A stretch of 64,000 nt of DNA from contig VRUD01000001.1 in NCBI GenBank assembly GCA_019456305.1, positions 9,717 through 73,716 on the forward strand, read 5' to 3'. Positions 110 through 58,316 of the stretch are shown piece by piece. The DNA comes from Cytophagales bacterium (GTDB lineage: Bacteria; Bacteroidota; Bacteroidia; Cytophagales; VRUD01). The translations under genes were made by a program, and so were the position numbers. Every line of letters starts with the position of its first letter. Position 1 is the stretch's first letter. Under the pieces are notes generated by a model that did not search any database, had not been told where the DNA came from, and saw only the letters and a program-made list of their open reading frames with translations.

Positions 110-175
110 ACTATTGATAATTATTTGTTTTTGCCTACTCTGTTTTAAGGATTTTCGGCTTGATCCTTTTGGTTG

Positions 176-2227: not shown

Positions 2228-4333
2228 TTACAAACTTCTACCCAGATACTTCACAATCAAAAAAAGCATAACGAATCCTAATAAGTAATTAAAGTACCAT
2301 GGAATGCCCATATTCACAAACACCGCACAAACCAATAAGCTTACCACAGCCACAGTGATTGCATAAGGCAATTGCGTTCTCACATGATCTACATGATTAC
2401 AATTGGTTGCTAATGAGCTCAGGATGGTTGTGTCAGAAATGGGCGAGCAGTGGTCACCAAATACCGAACCGGCCAGCACTACGGAAATAACATTATAGAA
2501 TATCGGCATTGATTGCCCGGTTTCAAAACCACTTTGCTGGCATAATAGCCAGGTAGCGGGAAGCATCAAAGGGTATAAAATTGCCATCGTGCCCCAGCTT
2601 GATCCGGTTGAAAATGAGATCAGCGCTGCCAGGATAAAAACTACAGTGGGCATCCATACGGGAGAAATAGCACCGCTGAACAAGGAAGTAAGAAAATCGG
2701 CTGTATGCAGATCCCCGGTTATTTTTGCCAGCGACCATGCCAGGATCAGGATCAGTACTGCAGGAAGCATGGTTTTGAAACCAAATACTAATGTATCCAT
2801 TATTTTTCTTAGCGGCATGATCCTTTGAATGACGGTTAACAGAATGGCTAAAACGACACCTGATAATGACGCCCAGAGCAAAGCCACATAAGCATCAGCA
2901 TTGCCGATAATGATCCCGAGTTTCCTGAAAAATGCTACATCCTGTCCGTTGTTAAGATGGTAAAGGTTTTCCCATACATTCATAAAGGAATAATCCTGTA
3001 TGACAATTCCGGCCTCCAATAAATTATCAAAAGATTTGTGAGCGCCTGTAACCAAAAGCGCTGCTATTGTTACTAAGACTACTGATATAACGGGAATAAA
3101 TGCATTGTACCACTTTTGTTTTACACCCTCGACAGGGTCCAAATCTTTAAGTGATTCATTATTTTCGAATTTCGAATTTCGAGTTTCGAGTTTCGAGTTT
3201 CGAGTTTCGAATTTCGAATTTCGAGTTTCGAATTTCGAGTTTCGAATTTTGAGTTTCGTCCCGAGTACTCGGGATCGAATTTCAGCCTTATACATTGACC
3301 CGAAATCCTTTTTAAAGTATATCAAAAAGAACATAAATACCAGTGTGAAAATGGGATAGAAAGCATATTGCAGCGAATTCAAAAACATTGAATAAGCATT
3401 TTCATTGATCCTTAAGTTAACCGAAGCATCCTGGATATAACCAAGCTCAGCTCCGATCCAGGTGGTAATAAATGCGATAGCAGCTACAGGCGCTGCAGTA
3501 CTATCCACTATATAAGCAAGCTTTTCTCTGGATATCTTGAACTTATCTGTTACCGGGCGCATGGTGTTGCCAACGATAAGTGTATTGGCGTAATCGTCAA
3601 AGAAAATAGCAATGCCCAGAAACCAGGTAATAAATTGCGCACTTCTGGCAGACTTTGCGTATTTTGATAATTTGTCAACAACTCCTGCCATCCCTCCGTT
3701 TTTGGAAATGATCGCTACCATGCCGCCAATCAATGTTGAAAATAAAATTACCGACAAATGCCCTGTGTCCATCATTGCGTTAATGATATAATTATCAAGC
3801 ACGTTGTACATGGCTGGGATCCAGTTTTTAGGATGAAAGCCAAGTAATATAAGCGCTCCTGAAAATATACCCAGGAAAAGCGACACCAACACCTCTCTGA
3901 ATATCAGCGCCATGGCAATGGCAATAAGCGGAGGCAGAATGCTGAGCCAGGCAGGGATATGTCTGATTTTGAAAAATTTAGCTATTCCGGAGTCCGTGTC
4001 CTTTACCGTTATTTTCTTTGATCCGTCAATTATGACAGGTGCAATGCCCATCCCTTCTTTAAACAGGATGATCTTGTTTTTACCATCAAACTGAAATACA
4101 AATTTTCCTTTAATAGACCTGTCTCTGTTGTCGTTCCTGTCTAAAGCGGTTATTTTTACATCTACATTTTTCCTGAACACATATTCGGGCGCTTCTATTA
4201 CAAAGTTTTTGATCCTGAGGGCTTGGACAGAAATACTGTATGTATCTTTGTTTTGCCGGGTAATTTTGATATTTTGTGCACAGGTAAAAATTGAGCATAA
4301 TAACAGCAGGCTTATCAATTGTACCTTTTTCAT
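2228..4333 (-). CDS. NhaC-family Na+/H+ antiporter with an N-terminal extracytoplasmic domain
   Basis: Many TM segments plus the NhaC-type block YANTLIVGNTMRPVTDKFKISREKLAYIVDSTAAPVAA. Start is MKKVQLISLLLLCSIFTCAQ (4331-4333), or 12 nt upstream at 4345. The central loop carries a repeat insertion. Confidence 0.75.
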   Translation of the reverse strand: MKKVQLISLLLLCSIFTCAQNIKITRQNKDTYSISVQALRIKNFVIEAPEYVFRKNVDVKITALDRNDNRDRSIKGKFVFQFDGKNKIILFKEGMGIAPVIIDGSKKITVKDTDSGIAKFFKIRHIPAWLSILPPLIAIAMALIFREVLVSLFLGIFSGALILLGFHPKNWIPAMYNVLDNYIINAMMDTGHLSVILFSTLIGGMVAIISKNGGMAGVVDKLSKYAKSARSAQFITWFLGIAIFFDDYANTLIVGNTMRPVTDKFKISREKLAYIVDSTAAPVAAIAFITTWIGAELGYIQDASVNLRINENAYSMFLNSLQYAFYPIFTLVFMFFLIYFKKDFGSMYKAEIRSRVLGTKLKIRNSKFETRNSKFETRNSKLETRNSKFENNESLKDLDPVEGVKQKWYNAFIPVISVVLVTIAALLVTGAHKSFDNLLEAGIVIQDYSFMNVWENLYHLNNGQDVAFFRKLGIIIGNADAYVALLWASLSGVVLAILLTVIQRIMPLRKIMDTLVFGFKTMLPAVLILILAWSLAKITGDLHTADFLTSLFSGAISPVWMPTVVFILAALISFSTGSSWGTMAILYPLMLPATWLLCQQSGFETGQSMPIFYNVISVVLAGSVFGDHCSPISDTTILSSLATNCNHVDHVRTQLPYAITVAVVSLLVCAVFVNMGIPWYFNYLLGFVMLFLIVKYLGRSL
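3165..3285. repeat. Heptamer array (TCGAATT/TCGAGTT)n plus CCCGAGTACTCGGG core, inside the NhaC ORF
   Basis: About 13 tandem 7-mers at 3165-3258 followed by TCCCGAGTACTCGGGA at 3259-3274. On the - strand this translates as ..EIRSRVLGTKLKIRNSKFETRNSKFETRNSKLETRNSKFE.. with no stop codon. Confidence 0.85.
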
Positions 4334-4540
4334 ATTAAAAGTCATTTAATAATTTGGTGCGGGGTAAAATTATTCTTTTTTTGAAAGATTACTATATTAA
4401 TGTTGAGACAATTTACTACCTTTGATAGCTACATAAAAATAAGAGTTGGCAGCGGCAGCAGCAGGAGGCAGGACTGCCAACTGCCGCTGCCTACTGCTGC
4501 TTGTTTGTTTTGTTGTCATTTGTGTAGCTATTTTCCTACA

Positions 4541-7195
4541 ATGAAAAAACCACTTATCATATTCTTATTAATTTTATCGGGACTGCCTGCTGCCGGCTTA
4601 TTTTCTCAAACCCCTCCCGACAAATCGGGATCTCCGCTGCGCTCCGAAAAGATTGACAGCCTCCTGCAGGTCTTAAAAAATGCCAAAGAAGACACCACTA
4701 AAATAAAAACCCTCATTAATAAAGAGATTGGTAATAAGCAGGGCATTGCAGTTTCAAACATCAATATTGGAGTGATTTATACCGAGCAAAAGCAGTATGA
4801 TAAAGCGATAGAACGAATTAGTGAAGGTTTAAAACTGGCAAAAAACATTGGCCATAAAGAATGGATGCAGCTTGCTTATAAGAGTTTTACAGATTTGTAT
4901 GTAAAACAGAAGAATCATAAAAAAGCTTTAGAGTATCACCAACTTTATGTGCAGACAAAAGACAGCCTCTTCAACGAAGAAAAATCCAAAGACATAGGCA
5001 GGGTGGAAGCAAGGCACGAGACAGAAATGCAGATGATGGAAGAGCAGGCAAAGGTGAAGGCTGAAGCGGATAAGATAGAAAAGGAAAAAAAACGCAGGAA
5101 TTACTGGCAGTATTCGGCTATTTTTATCGTATTTGTTATTTTGTTTTTGAGTTTATTCCTGCTGACAAGGTTTCATATTCCCATAACTGTTGCAGAAGGG
5201 ATCATTTTCACTGTATTTCTGCTGTTTTTTGAGTTTATCCTGGTATTGGCTGAGCCATGGATAGAAGCTATCTCACACGGAGAACCGGCTATTATCCTTG
5301 CATGCAATGCAGCGCTTGCAGGAATGATTTTTCCCTTTCACAGTTTCTTTGAAGCTAAGGTGAAAGAAAGGATAGTAAAACAGTCGGCAGTTGGCAATAG
5401 GCAGTTGGCAAAAAGAAAATCCAATATTACAAAACTTACCATGTTGTTGATGATTGCCTTTACTAATAGCTTTTACAGCTATTCTCCTACTTACACAGAG
5501 TCGAACTTTTCTAAACCTATGAAGTTTAGGAAAGTTATTGTTAAGGGAGCGCTTAGTTTTTCCAATTCAGATAATCAAGCAAAAACCCAATTCGTAAATC
5601 GTAAGTCTGAAATCGTAAATCCTACCATTGATTCTCTTGAAAATATGCTCAAAGCCCTTTCTGTTGGTGAGGGACGGGGCAAAAATGAAATTTCCAGATT
5701 AAAAATTCTAACCCGACTCATCCTGGAATACGAATTAACTGACCCTAATAAAGCCTTGCAATACGGAATGGAGGGTTTGGCTTTAGCAAAGCGTATGGCA
5801 AATTTGCCTGATGCATTTTTAGCAAAAGAAGGTAAAATAGGTGTAGCATCTTGTTTAAATAATATGGGGCTGGTTCATCAGGCACAAGGCAGCTACCAAA
5901 AAGCTACGGATCAATTCCTCTATTCATTAAAAATTAAAAAAGAATTATTTAACTCCCTCCCTACTGGTAAGGACAGTGAATGGATTAAACATGGAATTGC
6001 CAACAGCTTAATCAATCTCGGAGAAGTAAACAGACTTCAGGGAAATTACGACAAAGCCATTGATTATGATCTGCAATCTTTACAAAATTATGAGCAGTTA
6101 AAAGAATCATCTTTCAAAGCTCTGGCAAGGTCTGGCCAAATAGGGATTTCAAATTGTTGGAATAATATTGCTATAATTTATTATTACCAGCGTAACTATG
6201 AAAAAACCCTGGATTATTTCTTTCAATCTATAAAAATTAAAGAGAAACTAGGCAATAAAAGATTAATTGCAGAAAATTTAGGTAATATAGGGGTTATTTA
6301 TAAAATTCAGGGTAAAATTGAAAAAGCAATGAAGTATTATATGAAATGTTTAACACTAAGAAAGCAATTGGGATCAACTGGAGGATTTTCCAGCATTTTG
6401 ATTAATATCGCAAATATTTATACCATGCAGGGTAAATATAAAAAAGCCCTAAACTACCACTTTCAGGCATTGAAAATTACTCAACAGTTAGGTTATAAAG
6501 ATCAATCTGCTTTATGTCTGGATAATATTGGGGATATATATTCAAAGCAAAAGTATTATAAAAAGGCCATCTTATACTTTCACAAAGGTATAAATATTGC
6601 AAAGGAGATTGGATCTAAAATAGTACTCATGGATAGCTATAAACACCTTTCTAATACGTATGCCCAACTGGTAGAACACCCTCTTGCTCCTATTACCAGG
6701 GCAGTTGCTTACAAGCAAGCTTTTGAATACCACAAATTATATGCAGCTATTAAAGACAGCCTGTTTAATGAAGAAAAATCAAAAGAGATCGGCAGGTTGG
6801 AAGAGCACTACCTGATAGAAAAGAAAATAGCGAAAGAAAAAGCTAAAGCCAAAGTAGAGGCGGTGATAAAATCCGAAAAAAAAGCGCAAAGGCATAGACT
6901 TCAATTTATGGGCAGCTTTATTGTCATTGTAGCATTGTTAATAGTTGTATTCACACTTGCCGGGGTTTATATTCCGATTGGTTTTGCAAAAATACTGATT
7001 TTCATTATCTTCGTGCTGTTATTTGAATTTATCCTGGTGTTGTTAGACCCAATGGTAGATGAATTTTCCGGTGGAGCACCGGCAATAAAGCTTGCTTTCA
7101 ATGCCATGGTGGCAGGGATGATGTATCCTTTACACAGGTTTCTTGAGTCTAAACTTAAAAGTATGATATTAAAAAAGAAAACGAAGAGAACATAA
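4541..7195 (+). CDS. TPR-repeat membrane protein; apparent fusion of two tandem paralogous units
   Basis: MKKPLIIFLLILSGLPAAGLFSQ is a signal-like start at 4541. The block TPR - DSLFNEEKSK(D/E)IGR coiled coil - 3 TM with LLFFEFILVL occurs twice (about 4541-5380 and about 5640-7195). The 4400 start of the track ORF reads through an upstream hairpin. Confidence 0.6.
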   Translation: MKKPLIIFLLILSGLPAAGLFSQTPPDKSGSPLRSEKIDSLLQVLKNAKEDTTKIKTLINKEIGNKQGIAVSNINIGVIYTEQKQYDKAIERISEGLKLAKNIGHKEWMQLAYKSFTDLYVKQKNHKKALEYHQLYVQTKDSLFNEEKSKDIGRVEARHETEMQMMEEQAKVKAEADKIEKEKKRRNYWQYSAIFIVFVILFLSLFLLTRFHIPITVAEGIIFTVFLLFFEFILVLAEPWIEAISHGEPAIILACNAALAGMIFPFHSFFEAKVKERIVKQSAVGNRQLAKRKSNITKLTMLLMIAFTNSFYSYSPTYTESNFSKPMKFRKVIVKGALSFSNSDNQAKTQFVNRKSEIVNPTIDSLENMLKALSVGEGRGKNEISRLKILTRLILEYELTDPNKALQYGMEGLALAKRMANLPDAFLAKEGKIGVASCLNNMGLVHQAQGSYQKATDQFLYSLKIKKELFNSLPTGKDSEWIKHGIANSLINLGEVNRLQGNYDKAIDYDLQSLQNYEQLKESSFKALARSGQIGISNCWNNIAIIYYYQRNYEKTLDYFFQSIKIKEKLGNKRLIAENLGNIGVIYKIQGKIEKAMKYYMKCLTLRKQLGSTGGFSSILINIANIYTMQGKYKKALNYHFQALKITQQLGYKDQSALCLDNIGDIYSKQKYYKKAILYFHKGINIAKEIGSKIVLMDSYKHLSNTYAQLVEHPLAPITRAVAYKQAFEYHKLYAAIKDSLFNEEKSKEIGRLEEHYLIEKKIAKEKAKAKVEAVIKSEKKAQRHRLQFMGSFIVIVALLIVVFTLAGVYIPIGFAKILIFIIFVLLFEFILVLLDPMVDEFSGGAPAIKLAFNAMVAGMMYPLHRFLESKLKSMILKKKTKRT

Positions 7196-7430: not shown

Positions 7431-7742
7431 GTTGGCAATCGGCAATCGGCAGTCGGCAGTCCACAATCGACAGTCCACAGTCGGCAGTTGGCAGTTGGCA
7501 GTCCACAGTCCACAATCGGCAGTTGGCAGTCCATCCCGAGTACTCGGGAGCAGTCGGCAATTGTTTTTTGCCGACTGGGGACTGCCGACTGCCGATTGAT
7601 TAAGTTAAGTTTCTAAATCCAGTTGCCATATTGTTTTAATGGTTTGATTGTTATTTTCTTTTTTGTCGACTGTGGACTGCCGACTGCCGACTGATTTTTT
7701 TGCCGACTGGAGACTGTAGATTGCCGACTGCCGACTGCCAAC
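7431..7742. repeat. ~310-bp foldback built from GGCAGTC/GGCAGTT/CCACAGT heptamers around a CCCGAGTACTCGGG core
   Basis: 7431-7533 holds heptamers in GGCAGTY orientation and the core is at 7534-7549. 7570-7606 and 7664-7742 hold the complementary words (CCGACTG, GACTGCC). It lies between convergent genes. Confidence 0.8.
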
Positions 7743-7745
7743 TTT

Positions 7746-9296
7746 TTATTCACTTATTCCCTTTCCCGGGAGTGCAGCAATTATTCTATTGGCCATCTTC
7801 TGTATATTATCACCGATGATCCGTTGGATGTTATTTGAGTTTGAGTTATAGAAGATCTTTATTTTGCTGCCTGCAATTTGTTTGCCCTCCCTGTTATAAA
7901 TGGAGTAATGAACTATAAAATCCCGTTCATAATCCTGCCTCGTCCTGTCTAAACAATGCTCATAATTGGTATTTACTTCAAATTGAGTAACGAAGATATA
8001 ATATCCCAGGTCGTATTTTTTGTTGAAGTATTCAAAAAATTTAGGGTCTTTGATCTTTGCTCCAAAATATTTATTTTCAAACTTCATCTTGCCAAACCTG
8101 CCTGAAAAAGGAGATTCAGGGCTTTTTTTTAATTTTCTTTTCACTGTTTCGAGAGATACAGGCAAAGCCTTTTCTTTTGGAGGGGCATAATTATCTACAT
8201 AATCCGGTTCATTGACCAAATCCTGGTAATTATAAGTTAACGACCTGTATATTTTATTCAGATCAGTTACCGAATCTTCAATGGAGCCTCCCATAAGATG
8301 CACGGTTTCATAATCAGGGGACTGGATCATTGTATTTAAGTTTTTACGGAAAACCTGCCTTACTTTAGTTCTTGGAATACCAGATGCAGCAGCGATCTCA
8401 TCATCAGCATCGGAAAAATATAAATAAGGGTCAAAAGGTACGACTAAAACTTTTTTCTGGGTTCCGGGAACTGGGTTCTTGTCGGAGCGAAGCATAGATC
8501 CCCCCGAGTACTCGGGGGGGGTATTGGTTTCTGGGTACTGATCATCTATTCCCTCTATTTCCCCTTTTACTTCTATTTCCGTATTTACTTCTTTTTCCTC
8601 TATTTCCTCTACATCCTCTACTTCCTTTACTTCCTTTATTTCCTTTACTTTCTTCATATCTTCTTTTTTGCGTGACTTTATATATTCCTTTGCTAACACT
8701 TTTTCCACTGTTTCAACTTCACCCTTTGCCTTATATCCAACAATAAGTTTCTGGCCTGCTTTTATATGCAGGTCATTCAATCCCATTAATTGATCAAGAG
8801 ATATATTGTATTTTTTTGATAAACTCCAAAGGGTCTCTCCTGGTTTTACAATATGAATTATAGCTTCTTTGAATGTTTGTTTTTCTACCAGTATTGTAGG
8901 TTGATGTTCTCCGGTTTCCACGATATGTATGATAATACCTTTTTCAGAAATTCCGGATCTTTTGATGACATCAGGATGATATGGAATGTTGATGACCTGC
9001 CCTGTTTTCAAACCGTTTTCCAATGCAGGATTAATTTCCAGTAGCCCGGCAATGGGTACGCCATGTTTTGTAGAAATTCCATAGATGGTCTCACCGGCAG
9101 AAACCAGGTATATGAGATGGAGCTTGCCTTTGATCTTCTGGACACCGATCGAATCGCAGGAAGGATATGGGGAAATAGAGGAATAGGGAAATAAGGATTT
9201 CGAGTTTCGAGTTAAGGGTATAAGAGTATGTGTTATAGCAGAATAAACTATTGAACTAAAAAAAAACAATAGAAAAATAACAGAATTGTATTTCAT
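7746..9296 (-). CDS. LysM-domain protein (2 LysM) with an acidic KE-rich linker and an unknown C-terminal domain
   Basis: Two LysM-like blocks: YLVSAGETIYGISTKHGVPIAGLLEINPAL..GQVINIP and HIVKPGETLWSLSKKYNISLDQLMGLNDL..GQKLIV. It has an N-terminal signal sequence. Confidence 0.7.
   Translation of the reverse strand: MKYNSVIFLLFFFSSIVYSAITHTLIPLTRNSKSLFPYSSISPYPSCDSIGVQKIKGKLHLIYLVSAGETIYGISTKHGVPIAGLLEINPALENGLKTGQVINIPYHPDVIKRSGISEKGIIIHIVETGEHQPTILVEKQTFKEAIIHIVKPGETLWSLSKKYNISLDQLMGLNDLHIKAGQKLIVGYKAKGEVETVEKVLAKEYIKSRKKEDMKKVKEIKEVKEVEDVEEIEEKEVNTEIEVKGEIEGIDDQYPETNTPPEYSGGSMLRSDKNPVPGTQKKVLVVPFDPYLYFSDADDEIAAASGIPRTKVRQVFRKNLNTMIQSPDYETVHLMGGSIEDSVTDLNKIYRSLTYNYQDLVNEPDYVDNYAPPKEKALPVSLETVKRKLKKSPESPFSGRFGKMKFENKYFGAKIKDPKFFEYFNKKYDLGYYIFVTQFEVNTNYEHCLDRTRQDYERDFIVHYSIYNREGKQIAGSKIKIFYNSNSNNIQRIIGDNIQKMANRIIAALPGKGISE
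8500..8519. repeat. CCCCCCGAGTACTCGGGGGG palindrome inside the LysM ORF
   Basis: Perfect 20-bp palindrome, translated in frame as ..PPEYSGGS.. Confidence 0.8.
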
Positions 9297-9303
9297 TGTT
9301 ACT

Positions 9304-10611
9304 TTAAAATAATTTCACCACATCATTTCCAATAACAAATGCCATAAAAGAGAATAATATTACCATTCCTATGACCTGTGCATTTATCATAAATTTATCA
9401 CTGAATTTTTTCCCCGAAACTGCTTCAATACTTAAGAAGGCGGCATGCCCTCCGTCTAAGGCAGGTATGGGCAGTACATTGATAAAAGCCAGGATCATAG
9501 ATAACATACCGGTAAGTAACCAAAATTTATACCACACCCATACCCCACCAAAATGTTTAGCAATGTCAATTGGGCCAGACACAGATTTTGAAAATGATAA
9601 TTCACCTCTGATGATCTTGCCAAAAGCTATTATATTTGCAAATAAAATATCCCAGGATTTAGAGTTTCCCTTTACAATAGATTCAAGAAGTCCGTATTCA
9701 ATATGTTTAAATTTAAAATCATCAGTTATTTCGGGGATGAACCCCAATTTACCATCATCATCAACTTGTGCTGATAATTTTATCTCTTTACCCTTTCGGT
9801 CAATTATTAAATTAGCCTTCTGGGCTTTATAATGTCCCAAAATCTCAACAATTTCATCGAAGAAATTAACAGGTTTGCCATTAACGGAAATTATCTTATC
9901 ATTCGCTAATAATCCTGCTTTTTGGGCATTACTACCCGGTATTACTTCTTTCACATAAAAAGTAAAGCGGTAATCAATAAATTTAGTTCCTTTGGTTTCT
10001 TGCATTCTTTCAAGAAAATCAGCAGGCAGAGGGACATCAATCATTTTACCACTTCTCTCTACATTCAGTACAACATTATCACCCAATAGAACTTTAGTGC
10101 TTGTCAGCTCACTAAACCGGTTAACCTTTTGACCATTTATTGCAATTATTTTATCTCCTGTTTGTAAACCGATTTCCTGACCAAGCTTATGGGCAACAAT
10201 ACCATATTTTGCCTGGTCAATCGGTAAGTAATTGTCGCCATATCTAAAAGTCATTAGTGAAAAAATGACAATGCCAAGGATCACATTGACCGTAACTCCG
10301 GCCAACATAACTATCAGCCGCTTCCAGGCTGGTTTGGATCGAAATTCCCAGGGCTGCGGAGGCTTTTTCATCGCGTCAGTGTCCATAGATTCATCGATCA
10401 TTCCGGCAATTTTAACATATCCACCTAACGGTAGCCAGCCAATGCCATATTCAGTATCTCCTTTTTTAAAACTAAAAAGCTTTACTCCCCAGGCATCGAA
10501 AAACAGGTAAAATTTTTCGACTTTAATTCCAAATATCCTGGCAGCTACATAATGACCTAATTCGTGCAAAATGACCAAAATTGATAAGGCCAGAAGCAAC
10601 TGGGCTATCAT
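9304..10611 (-). CDS. rseP: RIP metalloprotease RseP (site-2 protease)
   Basis: HELGHY zinc motif near the N-terminus, PDZ-like middle region, and a C-terminal LPIPALDGG motif. The start MIAQLLLALS (10609-10611) fits family spacing; the alternative start is at 10692. Confidence 0.8.
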   Translation of the reverse strand: MIAQLLLALSILVILHELGHYVAARIFGIKVEKFYLFFDAWGVKLFSFKKGDTEYGIGWLPLGGYVKIAGMIDESMDTDAMKKPPQPWEFRSKPAWKRLIVMLAGVTVNVILGIVIFSLMTFRYGDNYLPIDQAKYGIVAHKLGQEIGLQTGDKIIAINGQKVNRFSELTSTKVLLGDNVVLNVERSGKMIDVPLPADFLERMQETKGTKFIDYRFTFYVKEVIPGSNAQKAGLLANDKIISVNGKPVNFFDEIVEILGHYKAQKANLIIDRKGKEIKLSAQVDDDGKLGFIPEITDDFKFKHIEYGLLESIVKGNSKSWDILFANIIAFGKIIRGELSFSKSVSGPIDIAKHFGGVWVWYKFWLLTGMLSMILAFINVLPIPALDGGHAAFLSIEAVSGKKFSDKFMINAQVIGMVILFSFMAFVIGNDVVKLF

Positions 10612-13858: not shown

Positions 13859-13882
13859 CCATTATTAACCTTCACTCCATTA

Positions 13883-13972
13883 GGGCATCTCTAAAAACTA
13901 CACCATACATTCCCCTCTATCAAGAGGGGCAAGGGGTGTGTTTTAAAAAATATGTAGTTTTTAGAGATGCCC
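13883..13972. mobile_element. 90-bp MITE-like element (copy 1), 20-bp perfect TIR GGGCATCTCTAAAAACTACA
   Basis: Identical at 90/90 positions to 49125-49214. It sits between the RAYT relic and the A2M start. Confidence 0.7.
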
Positions 13973-22504: not shown

Positions 22505-23370
22505 GATTAGTAGATTTTAGTTAATGTTAAATAATTTGTTTACGGAAAATTGTTTTGGCAGAAGGACTAAAACAGTCAGAGAGATTCTCTTTTTTTTGTG
22601 TAATTTAAATTGCCGGATTGTGTGATTTAAACTCTGATATTGTAGGATTTTGTTTTAATTTTTTGTAGGTTTTTATCCTACAATGATGATAAGAAAGATA
22701 TGTATAACAAGGATGAGAAGAAGCGTTTAGAGAAGTTTAAGCTTTAATCAGAAAAGTTTTAGAAGAGTTGTTAAAAGAGATGGTTGATCATGATTCTGGT
22801 TTCAGTGCTGTCAGGTGTTACCACCTGCCACCAAATCCTCATTGAACACTAAAATATTTTTTTACCGTATTTTAATTTTTTAAATTTTAATAAAATTAAC
22901 GGATCTACAAACGGTCATAAACAATAACCTGCCAAAATAATGTCTTATGATAAAAACATCTTTTAAAGCCATTTTTTATGATCAAATGCTTCCGTTTGAC
23001 AGCAACAAGTCATAATTCGCAGGTTTATTACGTACGCATATTTACGTATTTTCAAAATTACGTAAACTTTTTGTCAAAATAATCGTAATTTAATTTGTAT
23101 TTTAAAAACATTAATTTGTACTTTTAGGAAGATTTTTACTATTTGCATTTTTATCAAAGCTATTTGCATTCTATCAAAATGGAGTATTTAAGTTTTCTTA
23201 TGTGCCTGATATCATCCCAAGCTGCAAAATGCAGCTGTTTTTTTCTGAATAAAATTACCTGTCTGCGTCCCGGGCACTCGGGACAGGCAGGCAAGATCAG
23301 GAAATCTTCTGCTGATTATTCTTTTGGCGCATACGCATGGTATGGAGCAAAGGCCAAAGCGTTGAACGCC

Positions 23371-26300
23371 ATGCTCTATGCGCTATGCGCTATGCTCTTA
23401 CTCATCTCTACCACTTCGGTTAAAGCAGCAGTTCTAACTTCTATACAAACCGGCAATTGGACTGATGCTTCCACCTGGGATCTCGGCTATGTGCCTTTAG
23501 CCACTGATGATATAGTGATTGCAGCCGGCCATACGGTATCAATTCCAAATTCGGCAGGCAACCAAACCATTACCAATTTTACTATAAATACCGGAGGAAT
23601 TTTTAATAATAGTAATAAGAGAGTTATAGTGACAGGGAATTATACCAATAACGGCACCCATGCAGGCAGCATTGCAGCCAGAACCACTTTGAATACGCCA
23701 GGAGCTAGTGTAGATGGTATAGGAACCATACACTTTGGTGATTTTGTATTTGAAAACGGAGTTAAAACGATCTTATCAACCGCTAACCTTACCAAAGCAT
23801 TTGGCGATTTTGTGATTGGAAGCGGTGTTACCGTTACCAATAATGGTACCATTACTTCTGCTGAAAGATTGGATGGTGTGGATGCCACTACTTCTATATG
23901 GGTCAATGCAGTTGGTAGTACATTGAATTTTGGGGGTGATACCTTGCTGCCTGTTGGAGTATTAACCGCATCAGCTCCAGGCAATACGATTAATTACTAT
24001 AGCTCAGGTGACCAGCCAATAAAAATACCAACTGCCAACACCTATTACAATCTTTCCTTATCAGGGACAGGTATCAAAATCTTAATGGGTAATCTTATCA
24101 TAGCCGGTAATTTAGCCATTAACAGCGTTACTTTAGATGTTGATGTCACTAATAATTACAGCTTAAATATAGGTGGAGACTGGACAAACAGCGGAGTATT
24201 TGATGAACAATTAGGTACGGTTACTTTTGATGGTACTGCAGATCAAACAATTACAAATACCCTGGGAGAAACTTTTTATATTTTAAGAATTGATAAAACG
24301 GGCGGAAATTTGATCCTCAACGATAATATCACTGTCACCACAACACTTATTATGAACCAGGGTAATATTGTTACCGGTACAAATGTTATTACAGTTGGTA
24401 CCAGCATTGCGAATATCGGAGCGCTTGCTTACACTTCCGGAACCGTTGTTGGCCAATATAAAAAATGGGTAAATGCTATAGGTGTTGGCTACAATTTGCC
24501 GTTAGGTACAAGCGCTGATTACCGGCCTTTTAATTATACACTCACCAATTTGATGGGGGGAGGCGGTACCATTACCGGTGAGTTTATTTCATCTGCCCCT
24601 GGCAACAGTGGTTTGTCTTTAAGTGATGCAGGCGTTACAATTTACAATACTTTTGTAGAAGGATACTGGAGCTTAACAGGCGGTGATGGATTAAACACCA
24701 ACAGTTTTGATATTGAAGCTACCGGTAATGGTTTTACCAGCTTTACTATTGTTGCTTCTACCCGCTTATTAACGCGTGCCGATGCCGGAAGCCTCTGGAG
24801 CGCAGAAGGTACCCACGTTGCAGCAGTTGGCAATACTGCAAAACGTACCGGCACTTCCACCCTGCCAGCTCATTATGCCTTTGGTGATACCACAAATTGT
24901 ACAGGACCAGCTACATCAACGATTACAGGGCCTGACAGCGTATGTACCGATGTTACCGGTGTCCTTTATTATGTAACAGACAATCCGCCAAACTTTTATA
25001 GCTGGACAGTTACCGGAGGAACAAAGGTTTTAGATAATGGTGACAGCATCACTGTTGACTGGGGCTCTGCCGGTATGGTTGGAGATGTTACAGTGATTGA
25101 AACCAATACCTGTTCGGAGGGCGCTCCGGTCAGCCGTGCTGTAAATATTCATTCATTACCTACTTCTGTGATCACAGGTAAAGCAAACGTTGCTGCTTTT
25201 ACCACGGGTGTACCCTACTCTGTAACTGCAAGACCTGGTTATTCACCTTATACCTGGAGTGTAACAGGTGGTGGCACAATAGTATCCGGACAAGGTACAA
25301 ATAGTATTACAGTTGATTGGGGAGCTGCGGGTGCAGGTAATGTCAGCGTGGTTGCCAGCAGCGGGTGTGGTGATGCCCCCTCCGTTGGTCTTGATGTAAA
25401 TATTTATATAGTAATAAACAGCATCGTAAATGGTGCCTGGAACCTAACCGCTACGTGGGATTGCAATTGTGTTCCTGATTTTTTTGATAATATACGAATT
25501 CAGAATACGCATACCGTAACCCTGACCACAAATGAGGTAATAAATCATTTTGAAGTAGTAGCAGGAGGGGTCTTTGATGCTGCGGCTAAAAGGTTGGAAG
25601 TTACAGGCGATTTTAACTTAAATGGAGAATATAATGGTACTAATAACCTCACCTTAAGTGGTGCAGGTACAAACATTGATGGCGCCGGTAACATTTTCAA
25701 TACAGGAACATTGATAATATCAGGAGGGGCTAAAACTATATTATCAACGGCTGTGTTAACAAAATCTTCAGGAAGTTTTCAGATAGGCAGTGGTATTGCC
25801 GTTACAAATCAAGGAAATATTACACTTGGTGGTGATATTACAGGTGCAGCAAGCACAACAACCTGGGTAAATGATACACGCTCTACATTAAACATTGGTG
25901 GCATTATGTTAAGTACAGGAACGTTTTTTGCATCTGCTGCAAACAACTTAGTAAGTTATTATGGTGCTGTTGCTCAAAGTATAAAACTTCCAAATGCATC
26001 TACTTATCATGGTCTTTCAATTACAGGTTCGGGCATAAAAACCTTAACAGGCAATACCATCATAAATGGTGATGTGAATATCACAAGTACTTTTGATGTA
26101 GATGCTGCCAGCAATTATAGTATTGACATGCTGGGAAATTGGACCAATAGCGGAACTTTTAATGCTCAGATCGGCAAGGTAACTTTCAGAGGCTCTGCTG
26201 CACAATCAATTACAAACACCACTGGCGAATCCTTTTATGACCTGGTGATTAATAATAGCAGCGGGATCAATTTGGGCGGGCCTGTAACTGTAAACGATTC

Positions 26301-27772: not shown

Positions 27773-28090
27773 ATGGATAAAATTGAAATAATAAAAGAAT
27801 TAAAAGAATTACTCATCAAATATTTCCCTGGCGAAATTGCTCAGGTAATATTATTTGGTTCCCAGGTAAACGGAGATGCGCGGGAATATTCTGATTATGA
27901 TGTGCTTATTGTTGTAAATCGTAATTATGATTGGAGATATGAAAGGAAAATATTAAGGGTTGTCTATAAGAATGATCTTAAATACCATATCCTTACTGAT
28001 TTCACACTTATTTCAAATAAAGAATTAAATACCCTTAAAGGTAAACAACCGGTCGTGCTTGAAGCATTTGAAAACGGTATTGTAATATGA
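27773..28090 (+). CDS. Nucleotidyltransferase-domain protein (MNT-type antitoxin)
   Basis: The FGSQVNGDAREYSDYDVLIVV motif is the minimal NTase GS..(D/E).D signature. 105 aa. Confidence 0.8.
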   Translation: MDKIEIIKELKELLIKYFPGEIAQVILFGSQVNGDAREYSDYDVLIVVNRNYDWRYERKILRVVYKNDLKYHILTDFTLISNKELNTLKGKQPVVLEAFENGIVI

Positions 28091-28491
28091 CACTTAAACA
28101 TGAAGATAGAGAGAGTTTGATCAGATACAGAACTGAGCAGGCAGAAGATGCCATTGAAGATGCTCAAATTTTGATCGCAAAAGACAGGTTGAAAGCGGCA
28201 GTAAACAGAATATATTATGCAGTGTACTATATTGTTTTTGCTTTAGCTCTTAAGCACAAATTTAAAGGTACAAAACATTTGCCCCTGATAGCATGGTTTG
28301 ATAAAAAGTTTGTAGAAACAAATGTAGTTGATGTAAAGTATGGCGAAATGTACAGGGAAGCATTTAAAAAACGTTCTGAAGCTGATTATGGAACTTTTAC
28401 AAAATTCACCAAAAAGCAGGTTCTGGATTTGTTTGATCAAATGATGGAATTTGTTAAAAAAATTAAACATCTCCTTTATTCTGATGATTGA
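28087..28491 (+). CDS. HEPN-domain protein (toxin partner of MNT)
   Basis: Four-nt ATGA overlap with the NTase gene. The helical 134-aa protein with ..AVNRIYYAVYY.. and ..KRSEADYG.. fits the HEPN family. Confidence 0.75.
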   Translation: MTLKHEDRESLIRYRTEQAEDAIEDAQILIAKDRLKAAVNRIYYAVYYIVFALALKHKFKGTKHLPLIAWFDKKFVETNVVDVKYGEMYREAFKKRSEADYGTFTKFTKKQVLDLFDQMMEFVKKIKHLLYSDD

Positions 28492-45045: not shown

Positions 45046-45342
45046 ATGAACTACTCTAAAACCATAGACGGATTAAGTGACCAGGCATTCTGGGATGTGC
45101 ATTTTGATAAGCTGGACCCGAAGCGACATAATAACTTTATCGTGATGAAGGTTTTTGATTATGGTAATTGGGATGACGTATTATCGGTTTTGGGTTATTA
45201 TGGAAAAGATAGAGTGCGAAAGTGCTTGATTAATGCAGATTACTTGCAGGAGCATTCAATTGATTTGGCCAGATGGCTTTTAGATGTAAAACCTTCCGAT
45301 TTTAAATGCTTTACGAAAAAACAGTTACATCAGACATCCTAA
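45046..45342 (+). CDS. Small protein upstream of AbiEii (putative cognate antitoxin; family not recognised)
   Basis: ATG at 45046. 98 aa. Overlaps the following NTase-toxin gene by 37 nt. Confidence 0.5.
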   Translation: MNYSKTIDGLSDQAFWDVHFDKLDPKRHNNFIVMKVFDYGNWDDVLSVLGYYGKDRVRKCLINADYLQEHSIDLARWLLDVKPSDFKCFTKKQLHQTS

Positions 45343-46001
45343 GAGTGCTGGAAAAAATAAGTGGGATAGATGAATTAGAAAAATTCCAGCTTGTAGGGGG
45401 AACGGCTCTTGCCTTGCAACTAGGTCATCGTCAGTCGTTTGACCTTGATTTTTTTGCTGAAAGGGGCTTCAATAAAGAATACCTGGAATTACGGCTTAGA
45501 GCGCTGTTCCCTGAAAAAAAAGATTTAAGTCAGTCAATTAATGGCTTCTCCTGTAAGTTAGACGGAGTGAGATGTGATTTTTACGATTGGAAAACGGGTT
45601 ATATAAGGGAGCCGGTAGATTTTAAGGGAATAAAAATCGCGTCAACAGAAGATATTGCTGCTTTTAAATTGGATGCTATAACCAGGCGTACAACAATCAA
45701 AGATTTTTGGGATATTGCTGAGTTATTGGATAGGTATTCTATCAAGGAAATGATAATGTTTTACAAAGAAAAGTACCCATACCAGGATATAAGAATTGTT
45801 ATGGATTCGTTGCCCAAAGTTGAAAAAATAACAGAAAAGCCAGAGTATAAGATATTTAAGAATTGCACTTTAAAAGACGTAAATAAAAAGATAGAAACAG
45901 CAACGAAAGAATATATTGCAAATCAAATAAAGCAGAAAAAGGAAAAACAAGAGGAGCGGGTAAAAAAAGCAGAAAAACTTATAGAGCGAAAACAGTTGTG
46001 A
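45306..46001 (+). CDS. AbiEii/AbiGii-family nucleotidyltransferase toxin-like protein
   Basis: FQLVGGTALALQLGHRQSFDLDFF is the characteristic N-terminal NTase block of DUF1814/AbiEii. It has a lysine-rich tail. Confidence 0.7.
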   Translation: MLYEKTVTSDILRVLEKISGIDELEKFQLVGGTALALQLGHRQSFDLDFFAERGFNKEYLELRLRALFPEKKDLSQSINGFSCKLDGVRCDFYDWKTGYIREPVDFKGIKIASTEDIAAFKLDAITRRTTIKDFWDIAELLDRYSIKEMIMFYKEKYPYQDIRIVMDSLPKVEKITEKPEYKIFKNCTLKDVNKKIETATKEYIANQIKQKKEKQEERVKKAEKLIERKQL

Positions 46002-46631: not shown

Positions 46632-46660
46632 TGATTTTGGTTAGTTGGAAAGTGTTTTTT

Positions 46661-46787
46661 GCCACAAAAGCACAAAAGCACTAAATCCCACTAAAAATTA
46701 ACTAATTGATTTTCAGGGTTTTGTGGGATTTAGTGCTTTGGTGTTTTAGTGGCATTTTTATTTTTTGGACTTTTTAGAGTGGACTCA
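46661..46787. repeat. Second copy of the 2066-2218 hairpin (outer left arm missing)
   Basis: GCCACAAAAGCACAAAAGCACTAAATCCCAC..loop..TTTTGTGGGATTTAGTGCTTTGGTGTTTTAGTGGCATTTTT..GAGTGGACTCA. Confidence 0.8.
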
Positions 46788-47047
46788 AATAGTAAAATTA
46801 AATTCATGGCAAAAGTACTTCATCTCTCACAGAATATCAACCAAATTTATTTTATAAAAAAAACATCACTAAAAATTTGTATATTAAAAAACCATCCAAT
46901 ACCTTCGCCCGCAATTTTTGATCCACGCCTGTAGGCGCGGGATCAATATTTAATTTATTATTTAAACAAACACGGAACACGGAACGTACAGACGCCCAAA
47001 TTGGGCGTCTCAACATTCCTCAAATTCCTCAAAACAAATTAATTATC

Positions 47048-47610: not shown

Positions 47611-47652
47611 AAAAAAGCCCTGCTCCCGAGTACTCGGGACGGGGCTTTTTTT
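47611..47652 (+). terminator. Intrinsic-terminator-like hairpin with the CCCGAGTACTCGGG core in its loop
   Basis: AAAAAAGCCCTGC-TCCCGAGTACTCGGGA-CGGGGCTTTTTTT, 24 nt after the stop. Confidence 0.7.
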
Positions 47653-49026: not shown

Positions 49027-49066
49027 AAAAAGCCCTGATCCCGGGTATTCGGGAGGGGCTTTTTTT
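49027..49066 (+). terminator. Terminator-like hairpin with core variant CCCGGGTATTCGGG
   Basis: AAAAAGCCCTGA-TCCCGGGTATTCGGGA-GGGGCTTTTTTT. Confidence 0.65.
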
Positions 49067-49124
49067 CAACTACATGAATGTTTTTTTAAAAGAATAAAAA
49101 TCGTTAAATTAGTAATTACCTTTT

Positions 49125-49214
49125 GGGCATCTCTAAAAACTACACCATACATTCCCCTCTATCAAGAGGGGCAAGGGGTGTGTTTTAAAAAATATGTAGT
49201 TTTTAGAGATGCCC
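49125..49214. mobile_element. 90-bp MITE-like element (copy 2) with a 12-bp target-site duplication
   Basis: Identical to 13883-13972. It is flanked by TAATTACCTTTT at 49113-49124 and 49215-49226. Confidence 0.8.
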
Positions 49215-51977: not shown

Positions 51978-52763
51978 TTAAATGCAGTATCTATTCCATA
52001 TCTCCCATGCCTTCTCCGCCTGCAAATACAACATTTCAAGCCCGTTTTTAATTTTAGCTCCTTTTTCTTTTCCTTTCCTTAGAAACAAAGTTTCTTCGGG
52101 ATTATACACAAGGTCAAAAAGGAAATGCGAATGATCAATTGCCTTGTATGGTATGTCAGGGCATTTATTCACATCCGGGAACATGCCTAAAGGTGTTGCG
52201 TTGATTATTAATTTATGTTGTTTTACTATTTCTTCAGTTAGTTCATTATATTGGGTACTGAGTTCTGGGTTCTCGGTGCTGGGTTTTTGGCGGGAAACAA
52301 GTTGATAATCTATACCAAGGTTTTTAAATACTATGCTGACAGCTTTTGCCCCTCCCCCGGTTCCCAGGATCATTGCTACTAAATTTTTGGACGAATCTCC
52401 TGGCAAAAATTTCAACAAAGATTCTTTGAAACTAACTACATCTGTGTTGTAACCAATAAGCTTTGAACTTTGAACTTTGAACTCTGAACTCTGAACTTTT
52501 ATCGTATTAACAGCACCAGCTTCTTCAGCTATTTCATCCAGTTCATCTAAATAAGGAATGATTGATTCTTTATAGGGAATGGTAACATTTAAACCGGTTA
52601 TATCCGGATTATTTTTTATAAAATCAGGAAAATCACTTATTTGTTTTAATTCAAATAGTTCATAACAAGCATTTTTTATGCTTCCTTTATTAAACTTTTC
52701 TGTAAAATACTGTGATGAAAAAGAATGGGTGAGGGGAAAACCTATTAATCCAAAAGTTCTCAA
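51978..52763 (-). CDS. aroE: Shikimate dehydrogenase
   Basis: GLIG.PL.HS.S, NVTIPYK, GAVNTI...GYNTD and GTGGGAKA motifs. It carries two heptamer-repeat tracts in frame. Confidence 0.9.
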   Translation of the reverse strand: MRTFGLIGFPLTHSFSSQYFTEKFNKGSIKNACYELFELKQISDFPDFIKNNPDITGLNVTIPYKESIIPYLDELDEIAEEAGAVNTIKVQSSEFKVQSSKLIGYNTDVVSFKESLLKFLPGDSSKNLVAMILGTGGGAKAVSIVFKNLGIDYQLVSRQKPSTENPELSTQYNELTEEIVKQHKLIINATPLGMFPDVNKCPDIPYKAIDHSHFLFDLVYNPEETLFLRKGKEKGAKIKNGLEMLYLQAEKAWEIWNRYCI

Positions 52764-57902: not shown

Positions 57903-58316
57903 ATGAAGGTAGTTTTAGACACTAATATTTTACTTGTTTCAATCCCTAAGAAGTCAAAATATAGATTGATTTTTGATGGTGTGATTGATATGAGATATGA
58001 TTTGGTTGTGAGTCATGAAATTTTATTGGAGTATGAAGAAATAATTATACAGAAAACAAGTCAAATTGTCGCAAGTAATATTGTTGAATTGCTTGTAAAG
58101 GCTGATAATGTTGAAAAAAGAGAAATATTTTATAAATGGAATTTAATTGAGGCAGACAAAGAAGATAATAAGTTTGTAGATTGTGCGATTGCTGGCGGAG
58201 TTGATTACCTGGTATCCAATGATAGCCATTTTGACGTGTTGAAAAATATTCATTTTCCTCCTGTTACCCTCCTTAAAATAGATGAATTTATGAAAATTTT
58301 GAAAAACCTTGAATAA
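57903..58316 (+). CDS. PIN-domain toxin (TIGR00305-like)
   Basis: The VVLDTNILLVSIP start and ..EDNKFVDCAIAGGVDYLVSNDSHF supply the acidic PIN residues. Confidence 0.75.
   Translation: MKVVLDTNILLVSIPKKSKYRLIFDGVIDMRYDLVVSHEILLEYEEIIIQKTSQIVASNIVELLVKADNVEKREIFYKWNLIEADKEDNKFVDCAIAGGVDYLVSNDSHFDVLKNIHFPPVTLLKIDEFMKILKNLE

Follow-up and report, generated by a model that had tools for sequence, protein, structure and literature searches.

The window analysed here, a 64-kb stretch of DNA (64,000 nucleotides; positions 9,717 to 73,716 of contig VRUD01000001.1, GenBank assembly GCA_019456305.1), comes from a metagenome-assembled genome (MAG) of a Cytophagales bacterium. A transporter gene in it carries, in frame, a heptanucleotide array directly adjoined by a 16-nt palindrome (TCCCGAGTACTCGGGA), named P below. 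The gene (2228-4345, minus strand) encodes a 705-aa protein that matches PF03553 Na_H_antiporter (Pfam, E = 8.4e-55); it begins with a beta-rich domain, after which come two helical membrane halves (AlphaFold2 model). The database entry MBW8048742.1, 'NhaC family protein [Cytophagales bacterium]', is 100% identical to this open reading frame (ORF) over the 607 aa of that shorter gene call. The ORF scores 47 bits against the NCBIfam NhaC equivalog, far under the cutoff of 370. The label NhaC-family transporter is correct, and Na+/H+ antiport is at most putative.

The array spans 3163-3258 according to Tandem Repeats Finder (TRF), with a period of 7, 13.7 copies, 89% matches and the consensus TTTCGAG. 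Two unit variants, TTTCGAG and TTTCGAA, are interleaved, and the longest perfect period-7 run is 34 nt. P follows directly at 3259-3274, in agreement with an earlier note, made from the letters of this DNA, which had placed about 13 heptamers and a palindrome near 3165-3285. On the coding (minus) strand, the units read GAAACTC and GAAATTC. As 7 is not divisible by 3, each unit is read in a different frame from the one before; three successive units thus take up all three frames and encode one copy of a 7-aa repeat, (RNSKFET/RNSKLET)n, at residues ~363-395. The array is translatable because its unit is stop-free in every coding-strand frame; indeed, no stop codon is found in any of the three frames of the whole array, a property that every heptamer array must have to be translated. 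P, read S-R-V-L-G at this site, is stop-free in all six frames by sequence inspection. The 705-aa translation contains ...MYKAEIRSRVLGTKLKIRNSKFETRNSKFETRNSKLETRNSKFENNE... across repeat and palindrome, and its repeat region had been quoted as ...KAEIRSRVLGTKLKIRNSKFETRNSKFETRNSKLETRNSKFENNE... in the note, whose (RNSKFET)n reading is correct.

Beyond P, the flank at 3275-3283 starts with TCG (3275-3277), a repeat of the TCG at 3256-3258, and the rest is one more heptamer (coding GAAATTC) with the codon of the conserved Glu355. On the coding strand, the junction reads CGA-P-CGA. Excising P together with one CGA (19 nt) restores an uninterrupted array of 14 units starting at the Glu355 codon, and this remaining array of 98 nt is out of frame. 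The array is self-complementary, with a minimum free energy (MFE) of -45.1 kcal/mol (z = -6.7) in the mRNA sense and of -57.5 kcal/mol on the opposite strand; the hairpin of P has an MFE of -8.2 kcal/mol. A chance origin is excluded for both the heptamer word and the palindrome: the 14-mer TTTCGAGTTTCGAG, with up to two mismatches, occurs 13 times in the 64 kb versus 0.41 expected, and P, with up to three mismatches, 11 times versus 0.05, five of these occurrences being exact.

The AlphaFold2 model (mean predicted local distance difference test score, pLDDT, 81.9; predicted template modelling score, pTM, 0.75) falls below a pLDDT of 50 at residues 363-396, which are exactly the repeat peptide and form the only long segment of this kind in the membrane domain. 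This segment sits between helices 349-372 and 391-400/413-444, hence between the two well-modelled helical halves, where the earlier note had located it from the translation. A comparison with NhaC orthologs, which that note had proposed as a way of defining the insert, was made with 21 proteins, all at most 59% identical to that of the window. Right after the conserved KAExRARxTG, all 21 have a hydrophilic, sequence-variable loop ~20 aa shorter than the one in the window and unrelated to it, and none has the repeat peptide. P and the preceding CGA codon together give R-S-R-V-L-G, which aligns onto R-A-R-x-T-G of the orthologs. Among 5.8 billion proteins, matches to the repeat peptide were obtained only in products of at most 100 aa, nearly all lacking a Pfam domain. 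The six that were inspected are translated (GAAACTC)n arrays, and outside this transporter the peptide is found only in spurious mini-ORFs. As its matches are confined to short products, the peptide is best seen as a read-out of the DNA and not as a protein module.

Comparison with a related species

The 90%-identity protein cluster of the transporter holds one other distinct sequence, MCH8318208.1, from assembly GCA_022567835.1 (contig L001), and the two DNAs are about 89-90% identical. At the same codon position, L001 reads GCT GAA TTTAAAGCACGTTCT, followed by six units (two GAAACTC and four GAAATCC) and by GAAAATAAT. From GCT (Ala354) to GAAAATAAT, the tract of the window measures 117 nt with 14 heptamer units and P, whereas that of L001 measures 60 nt with six units and no P. 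Both are in frame. Unit number, the invariance of which had been named in the earlier note as an argument against a switching tract, thus differs more than twofold between ~90%-identical relatives. The difference of 57 nt is a multiple of 3 and not of 7. It is complex rather than a simple unit slip, as it combines the insertion of the palindrome, the loss of 15 nt and unit changes.

The repeat peptide is RNSKFET in the window and RNPKLEI in L001. The GAAACTC unit is common to both species, and the second variant is GAAATTC throughout the array of the window versus GAAATCC throughout that of L001. Such lineage-specific second variants represent concerted evolution. Since unit variants are homogenised separately in each lineage, the tract has turned over repeatedly. 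The array itself appears to predate the split between the two species. The state with the palindrome is probably the derived one because L001 keeps an ancestral-like KAEFKARS. As the 98-nt array lacking P is out of frame, the +1 shift of a 19-nt insertion would have been compensated by unit number, unless everything arrived in one event. A metagenome scan for further alleles found nothing closer than 48% aa identity.

Heptamer arrays and copies of the palindrome

The tract is one of many. TRF detects more than 12 period-7 arrays with different units in the 64 kb, and a scan of periods 4 to 12 gives four strong arrays at period 7 and none or one at each other period. About half of the arrays are intergenic, although intergenic DNA makes up only ~12% of the window. 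Including that of the transporter, four genes have an array in frame. In the shikimate dehydrogenase gene (ORF 51978-52763, minus strand, PF08501), 5.6 copies of CTTTGAA at 52461-52499 add exactly seven residues (VQSSEFK) before GYNTD, by comparison with the AroE chains 5dzs, 3fbt and 2hk7 of the Protein Data Bank (PDB). In a gene for a LysM protein (7746-9296, minus strand), 2.3 copies of TTTCGAG at 9198-9213 encode the peptide TRNSK in an N-terminal insert. The word TTTCGAGTTTCGAG stands there at 9198-9211, read ...LTRNSKS..., so that its recurrence near the N-terminus of this protein, already remarked on from the letters, is real. The insert, ~20 aa long, is absent from all eight orthologs covering the N-terminus (the ortholog P0124 is N-terminally truncated). 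The same protein carries a P variant (CCCCGAGTACTCGGGG, 8502-8517, minus strand), read PPEYSGG in a linker, next to a 9-mer array (8545-8650); it lies in a 10-aa insertion relative to P0124, which is 72% identical.

The LysM protein has altogether three lineage-specific low-complexity inserts made of small DNA repeats, at 8502-8517, 8545-8650 and 9170-9213. The second is an 11-copy array read as an E/K/V-rich linker, and the third is built from 8-mer and heptamer arrays. A TPR ORF (4400-7195, plus strand, 931 aa) contains in-frame heptamer arrays at 5381-5410 and 5592-5621. It consists of two homologous halves, 4923-5383 being ~67% identical to 6717-7177. The halves are joined by a stretch with two stop-free arrays. 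This ORF may correspond to two tandem paralogues fused by read-through, an array having replaced the first stop codon.

An intergenic block at 7434-7743 is composed of arrays of CAGTCGG, CAGTCCA and CAGTTGG, of the inverted GCCGACT, and of an exact P (7534-7549). It folds as a long hairpin (MFE -72 kcal/mol, z = -9.3 for 7480-7610) on which P forms a side branch. About 100 nt of this block (7600-7698) match, with 83% identity, a segment of L051, a contig of 3 kb assigned to Solirubrobacterales, in which P has a different position. The CAGT core of the CAGTCGG and CAGTCCA arrays resembles the cyanobacterial STRR units and the TAACTGA repeat of Beggiatoaceae. Heptamers are reported as the commonest long simple-sequence repeats (LSSRs) in bacteria (Mrazek 2007, as cited in PMC4679880 and PMC4692102). 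The known heptanucleotide LSSRs (cyanobacterial STRR, TAACTGA of Beggiatoaceae and Bacteroidetes, GGGAATC of Xanthomonas and Nostoc) share with the arrays of the window the tandem 7-nt units, the many different units per genome and the dominance of period 7. The known ones are mostly non-coding and, like those here, occasionally translated as 7-aa repeats; peptides derived from TAACTGA arrays are discussed in PMC4679880. The array of the transporter gene differs from them in that it extends over 96 nt in the middle of an intact gene, that its ortholog in a sister species has another length, and that a dispersed palindrome breaks it up.

Besides the copy at 3259, copies or variants of P are found in the window at 183, 7534, 8502, 11913, 23268, 44289, 47624, 49039 and 56023, with a doubtful one at 4615. 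Most of them cap longer, locus-specific hairpins located between or downstream of genes. Thus, the exact P at 47624-47639 caps a bidirectional terminator-like hairpin made of an A-run, a stem and a U-run (MFE -27.2 kcal/mol, z = -7.2), and the copy at 49039 is similar. Only two copies are coding, the one in the transporter and the LysM variant. All are singletons more than 1 kb apart, without inverted doublets. At gathering thresholds, Rfam finds nothing over P or the array in the window and only tRNAs in 18 P-rich loci. Its only hit in the window is a DUF805b RNA motif at 132-168 (minus strand; 41.6 bits versus a gathering threshold of 35.6), 15 nt from the P copy at 183.

A scan of one genome per species yielded at least 120 stretches with P, and all figures for other genomes given here rest on the matches listed. 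Most of these hits are in Bacteroidota, and the exact 16-mer is multi-copy in many Bacteroidota and also in some Patescibacteria and Aminicenantia; several MAGs have many copies, such as one from Aminicenantia, two from Patescibacteria and one from Rikenellaceae. Further P-like copies lie within 8 kb at 23 of 120 loci versus 0.2 expected, with only few close pairs (e.g., in L020 and L109). The copies vary mainly in the central 4 nt, which is the signature of a hairpin. Open spans of at least 200 codons include 21% of the copies versus 68% of control positions. P is nevertheless in frame in some apparent enzymes recognised by their conserved motifs, such as a PrmC-like methyltransferase, a histidine kinase and a MiaB-like enzyme. 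These in-frame copies are read as SRVLG, PEYSG or PSTR(E/D) and fall in loops of the apparently conserved enzymes. The bases around P follow a symmetric Y-M-R preference. At 36 of 127 copies (28%, versus ~8% expected), P adjoins a CG that makes up a CGTC tag, which is enriched and not constant. Direct flank repeats of at least 3 nt (3-5 nt) surround 10 of 135 copies versus 4.0 in a composition-matched null (P = 0.0075). A target-site duplication of fixed length is not general, as 3-nt direct flanks occur at 4 of 136 copies versus 2.1 expected.

Two contigs suggested an origin of P from tRNA or 5S rRNA genes, which is rejected since ARAGORN and Rfam find one normal tRNA-Asp in the first (L082) and no 5S. 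In this Sphingobacteriales contig, three tandem tRNA-Asp-like copies and a partial one (5430-5790 and 6300-6370) lie beside the normal tRNA-Asp; a P-like hairpin replaces their 3' anticodon stem and variable loop, and Rfam does not recognise these repeats. In the second (L033, a Chitinophagaceae MAG), P variants recur at 1770-2430 in ~122-nt tandem units that are likewise unrecognised by Rfam. Carriage by phages is not retained either: judged roughly, the 15 exact matches in IMG/VR are about as many as chance would give in a collection of this size.

Origin of the tract and competing explanations

The best explanation of the tract is that two classes of small repeats, both spread through the genome, here fall in a coding region, and that it is not a dedicated feature of the transporter. 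Its origin is probably that of a hypermutable, essentially neutral microsatellite, into which a palindrome similar to repetitive extragenic palindromic (REP) elements was later inserted, the whole being tolerated in a permissive loop and kept in frame by selection. According to this scenario, the GAAACTC/GAAATTC array would have arisen in the unstructured loop of variable length between the two membrane halves, before the split from the L001 species, and would since have expanded and contracted by replication slippage or unequal exchange. Such mechanisms are favoured because the unit contains the palindrome TTCGAA, so that the array folds on itself; this self-pairing should favour slippage. 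Changing the array by one or two units truncates the protein at residue 390-412 of 705, with loss of the C-terminal membrane half, as anticipated for a single unit in the earlier note, whereas a change of three units leaves it intact. Only alleles with a net length that is a multiple of three would thus keep the C-terminal half in frame, and purifying selection would remove the others. Later, in the lineage of the window, P would have landed inside the array with a 3-nt duplication (CGA-P-CGA). Its 19 added bases amount to a +1 shift, and the present length of 14 units would be a compensated state, if not all of it arrived in one conversion event. For the protein, this amounts to a disordered loop longer by ~19 hydrophilic residues, a change that is probably neutral.

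Several points weigh against this account. Only two distinct alleles are present in the searched collections. The contig L002 belongs to the same assembly as the window (100% identity over 14.3 kb) and brings no independent confirmation of the unit number. No transposase or REP-associated tyrosine transposase (RAYT) domain, nor any P-mobilising enzyme, is found in the 31 ORFs of the window that were scanned with Pfam or in the gene calls of L002. The exact superposition of R-S-R-V-L-G on the conserved R-A-R-x-T-G may point to selection on the product, or to an origin by a conversion-like event, rather than to a simple insertion. Finally, while the anatomy of the tract, its polymorphism, its place in the loop and its genomic setting are directly observed, slippage, the sequence of events and neutrality are deduced.

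Among the alternatives, the first is the one put forward in the earlier note, namely that the tract is a contingency (phase-variable) locus in which slippage by a single unit turns the transporter OFF, the protein being cut short after its first membrane half, and ON again, this stochastic switching being selected. Neither of the two refuting observations named in that note applies, as unit number varies and the peptide is missing from distant orthologs. The arithmetic behind this proposal stands, since the unit length is not divisible by 3, and so does the variability in unit number between related species, with variants homogenised per lineage as a sign of ongoing turnover. The perfect core of 34 nt within 13.7 units and the strong self-complementarity, which should promote slippage, go in the same direction, as does the compensation of the +1 frameshift of P through unit number, by which the array appears able to restore the frame. 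In the contingency loci of Haemophilus, Neisseria and Helicobacter, units not divisible by 3 are also located inside coding sequences and unit changes also shift the frame. However, these repeats are perfect, usually made of 1-5-nt units, and located near the 5' end of surface or restriction-modification genes. According to Lin and Kussell (2012), as cited in PMC4692102, phase-variable repeats cluster near N-termini, often in genes for surface proteins. The tract of the window is imperfect and covers codons 363-395 of 705, i.e., the middle of a gene for a PF03553 transporter, which is no surface, host-interaction or restriction-modification gene, and both known alleles are in frame. Shikimate dehydrogenase and other ordinary genes contain similar arrays in frame, and about half of the arrays of the window are intergenic, so a general mutational process explains the tract without selection for switching. 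A contingency role is therefore possible and atypical, with no 5' position, perfect repeats, surface-related gene class or observed OFF alleles to characterise it, and a dedicated locus of this kind is unlikely.

As a separate observation on phase variation, a P-like palindrome (23268-23283) lies ~80 nt upstream of an (ATGCGCT)n heptamer array (23367-23395). This array overlaps what are likely the start codon and the signal peptide of a type IX-secreted PKD-domain protein. As each unit contains an ATG, a change in unit number would alter the choice of the in-frame ATG; for phase variation, this location is more classical than that of the transporter tract.

Less probable again is that array and palindrome form one composite mobile element, inserted or gene-converted into the loop as a unit. 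P does lie within or beside heptamer arrays at 3259, 7534 and 44289 in the window and is at times embedded in such arrays in other phyla (L105, L017, L036, L066 and L093). At the 5' edge, the loss of 15 nt and the gain of 23 nt also look more like a replacement than like point mutation. Period-7 arrays are present near 7.1% of the P copies listed versus 1.1% of random positions, but the enrichment vanishes when the controls are non-coding positions (5.3% versus 3.8%, p = 0.53), a comparison in which stop-free arrays may be masked as coding. A mechanistic coupling of P to arrays is consequently not claimed. Moreover, the orthologous array of L001 exists without P, and array units differ from locus to locus. 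The simplest reason for the adjacency in the transporter gene is permissiveness, the array marking one of the few sites that tolerate extra sequence.

A function of the insert, either as a basic heptad-like peptide selected as a regulatory or linker module, or through mRNA hairpins of P and array regulating translation or mRNA stability, is more doubtful still. In favour of a function, P keeps the R-x-R-x-x-G spacing found in the conserved motif, the mRNA folds strongly (-45 kcal/mol, z = -6.7), and the array has been maintained since the L001 lineage separated. Nevertheless, the peptide is conserved in no ortholog, differs between the two relatives, is modelled as disordered and is encountered elsewhere in spurious mini-ORFs alone; with one hydrophobic residue per heptad, it is not coiled-coil-like either. 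An assembly artefact, i.e., a mis-assembled repeat or a chimeric palindrome, is very improbable: the source is a MAG whose only second copy, L002, comes from the same assembly, but the 705-aa reading frame is preserved through the tract, a MAG obtained independently in a different project shows the orthologous array at this codon position too, and P recurs in many unrelated assemblies, including, by their record titles, megabase-scale contigs and complete chromosomes.

Under the favoured reading of a neutral array later joined by a palindrome, the tract would offer a natural example of how small repeats, selfish or made by slippage, can enter essential-looking genes, namely via disordered loops, without stop codons and with a net length that is a multiple of three. 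The comparison of the sister species adds a probable chronology, in which the array arose before the two species diverged and the palindrome was added afterwards, the 19-nt insertion being frame-compensated via heptamer number or brought in by a single event. For annotation, such tracts yield lineage-specific low-complexity inserts, spurious mini-ORFs and possibly gene fusions.

Known palindromic systems and wider meaning

REP elements, including the GTAG- and CGTC-tagged families (PMC3733652 and PMC3116915), are among the known systems closest to P, which is also a short, GC-rich, high-copy hairpin with an extragenic bias. Like them, P is located mainly downstream of or between genes, is plausibly terminator-like and is occasionally in frame in ORFs; CGTC accompanies 28% of its copies. 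Insertion of REPs and other small repeats in frame in genes is documented (PMC3733652 and PMC3184786). The string TCCCGAGTACTCGGGA was found neither in the searched literature nor in the REP catalogue of PMC3733652. P differs from REPs by its size of only 16 nt, its perfect palindromy, its inconsistent tag and the multi-copy presence of the identical 16-mer in several phyla. It differs from the REP/RAYT system as no REP doublets and no RAYT gene are seen in the 64-kb window.

The palindromic elements of Rickettsia are ~100-150 nt long, form a defined sequence family and are known only from this genus. By contrast, P is 16 nt long and occurs in Bacteroidota, Patescibacteria and Aminicenantia, the host being here a Cytophagales MAG. 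Insertion of the Rickettsia elements in frame into protein genes is reported by Ogata (2000), as cited in PMC3184786 and PMC3733652. These elements are selfish palindromic DNA at structurally permissive sites, and P resembles them as a palindrome standing in frame at such sites, in the loop of the transporter, in the LysM linker and in apparent enzymes elsewhere. The small dispersed repeats (SDR, 21-27 nt) of Nostoc are very small, apparently mobile, hairpin-forming and non-coding, and reside in genomes rich in heptamer arrays. P is similar to them in size, hairpin and array-rich genome, and both its sequence and its host phylum are different. For the Nostoc repeats, PMC3116915 refers to Elhai et al. 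(2008).

A broader reading, advanced only tentatively, would make P a previously undescribed ultra-small mobile palindrome common to Bacteroidota, Patescibacteria and Aminicenantia. Stop-free in all six frames, it would insert both into non-coding DNA rich in hairpins and into permissive loops of coding sequences, duplicating 3-5 nt at its target. For such insertions, heptamer arrays could be safe harbours, in which unit changes (7 = +1 mod 3) buffer the frameshifts caused by insertion, and the transporter tract would be a case caught in the act. The cross-phylum multi-copy spread, the presence and absence of P at an orthologous site and the flank duplications speak for this reading. Its weak points are the unsupported coupling to heptamer arrays and the lack of a known mobilising enzyme. 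If P were indeed a mobile element common to Bacteroidota and bacteria of candidate phyla, it would count as one of the smallest such elements known and would point to a mobilising activity yet to be identified.

The window also includes other dispersed non-coding repeats. The segments 2088-2220 and 46656-46789 are 89% identical over 134 nt and contain 8-mer arrays of the CACAAAAA type, while 13877-13972 and 49119-49214 are 98% identical over 96 nt. Genes of toxin-antitoxin type, with HEPN, AbiEii nucleotidyltransferase and PIN domains, are scattered amid the housekeeping genes (28087-28491, 45306-46001 and 57903-58316).

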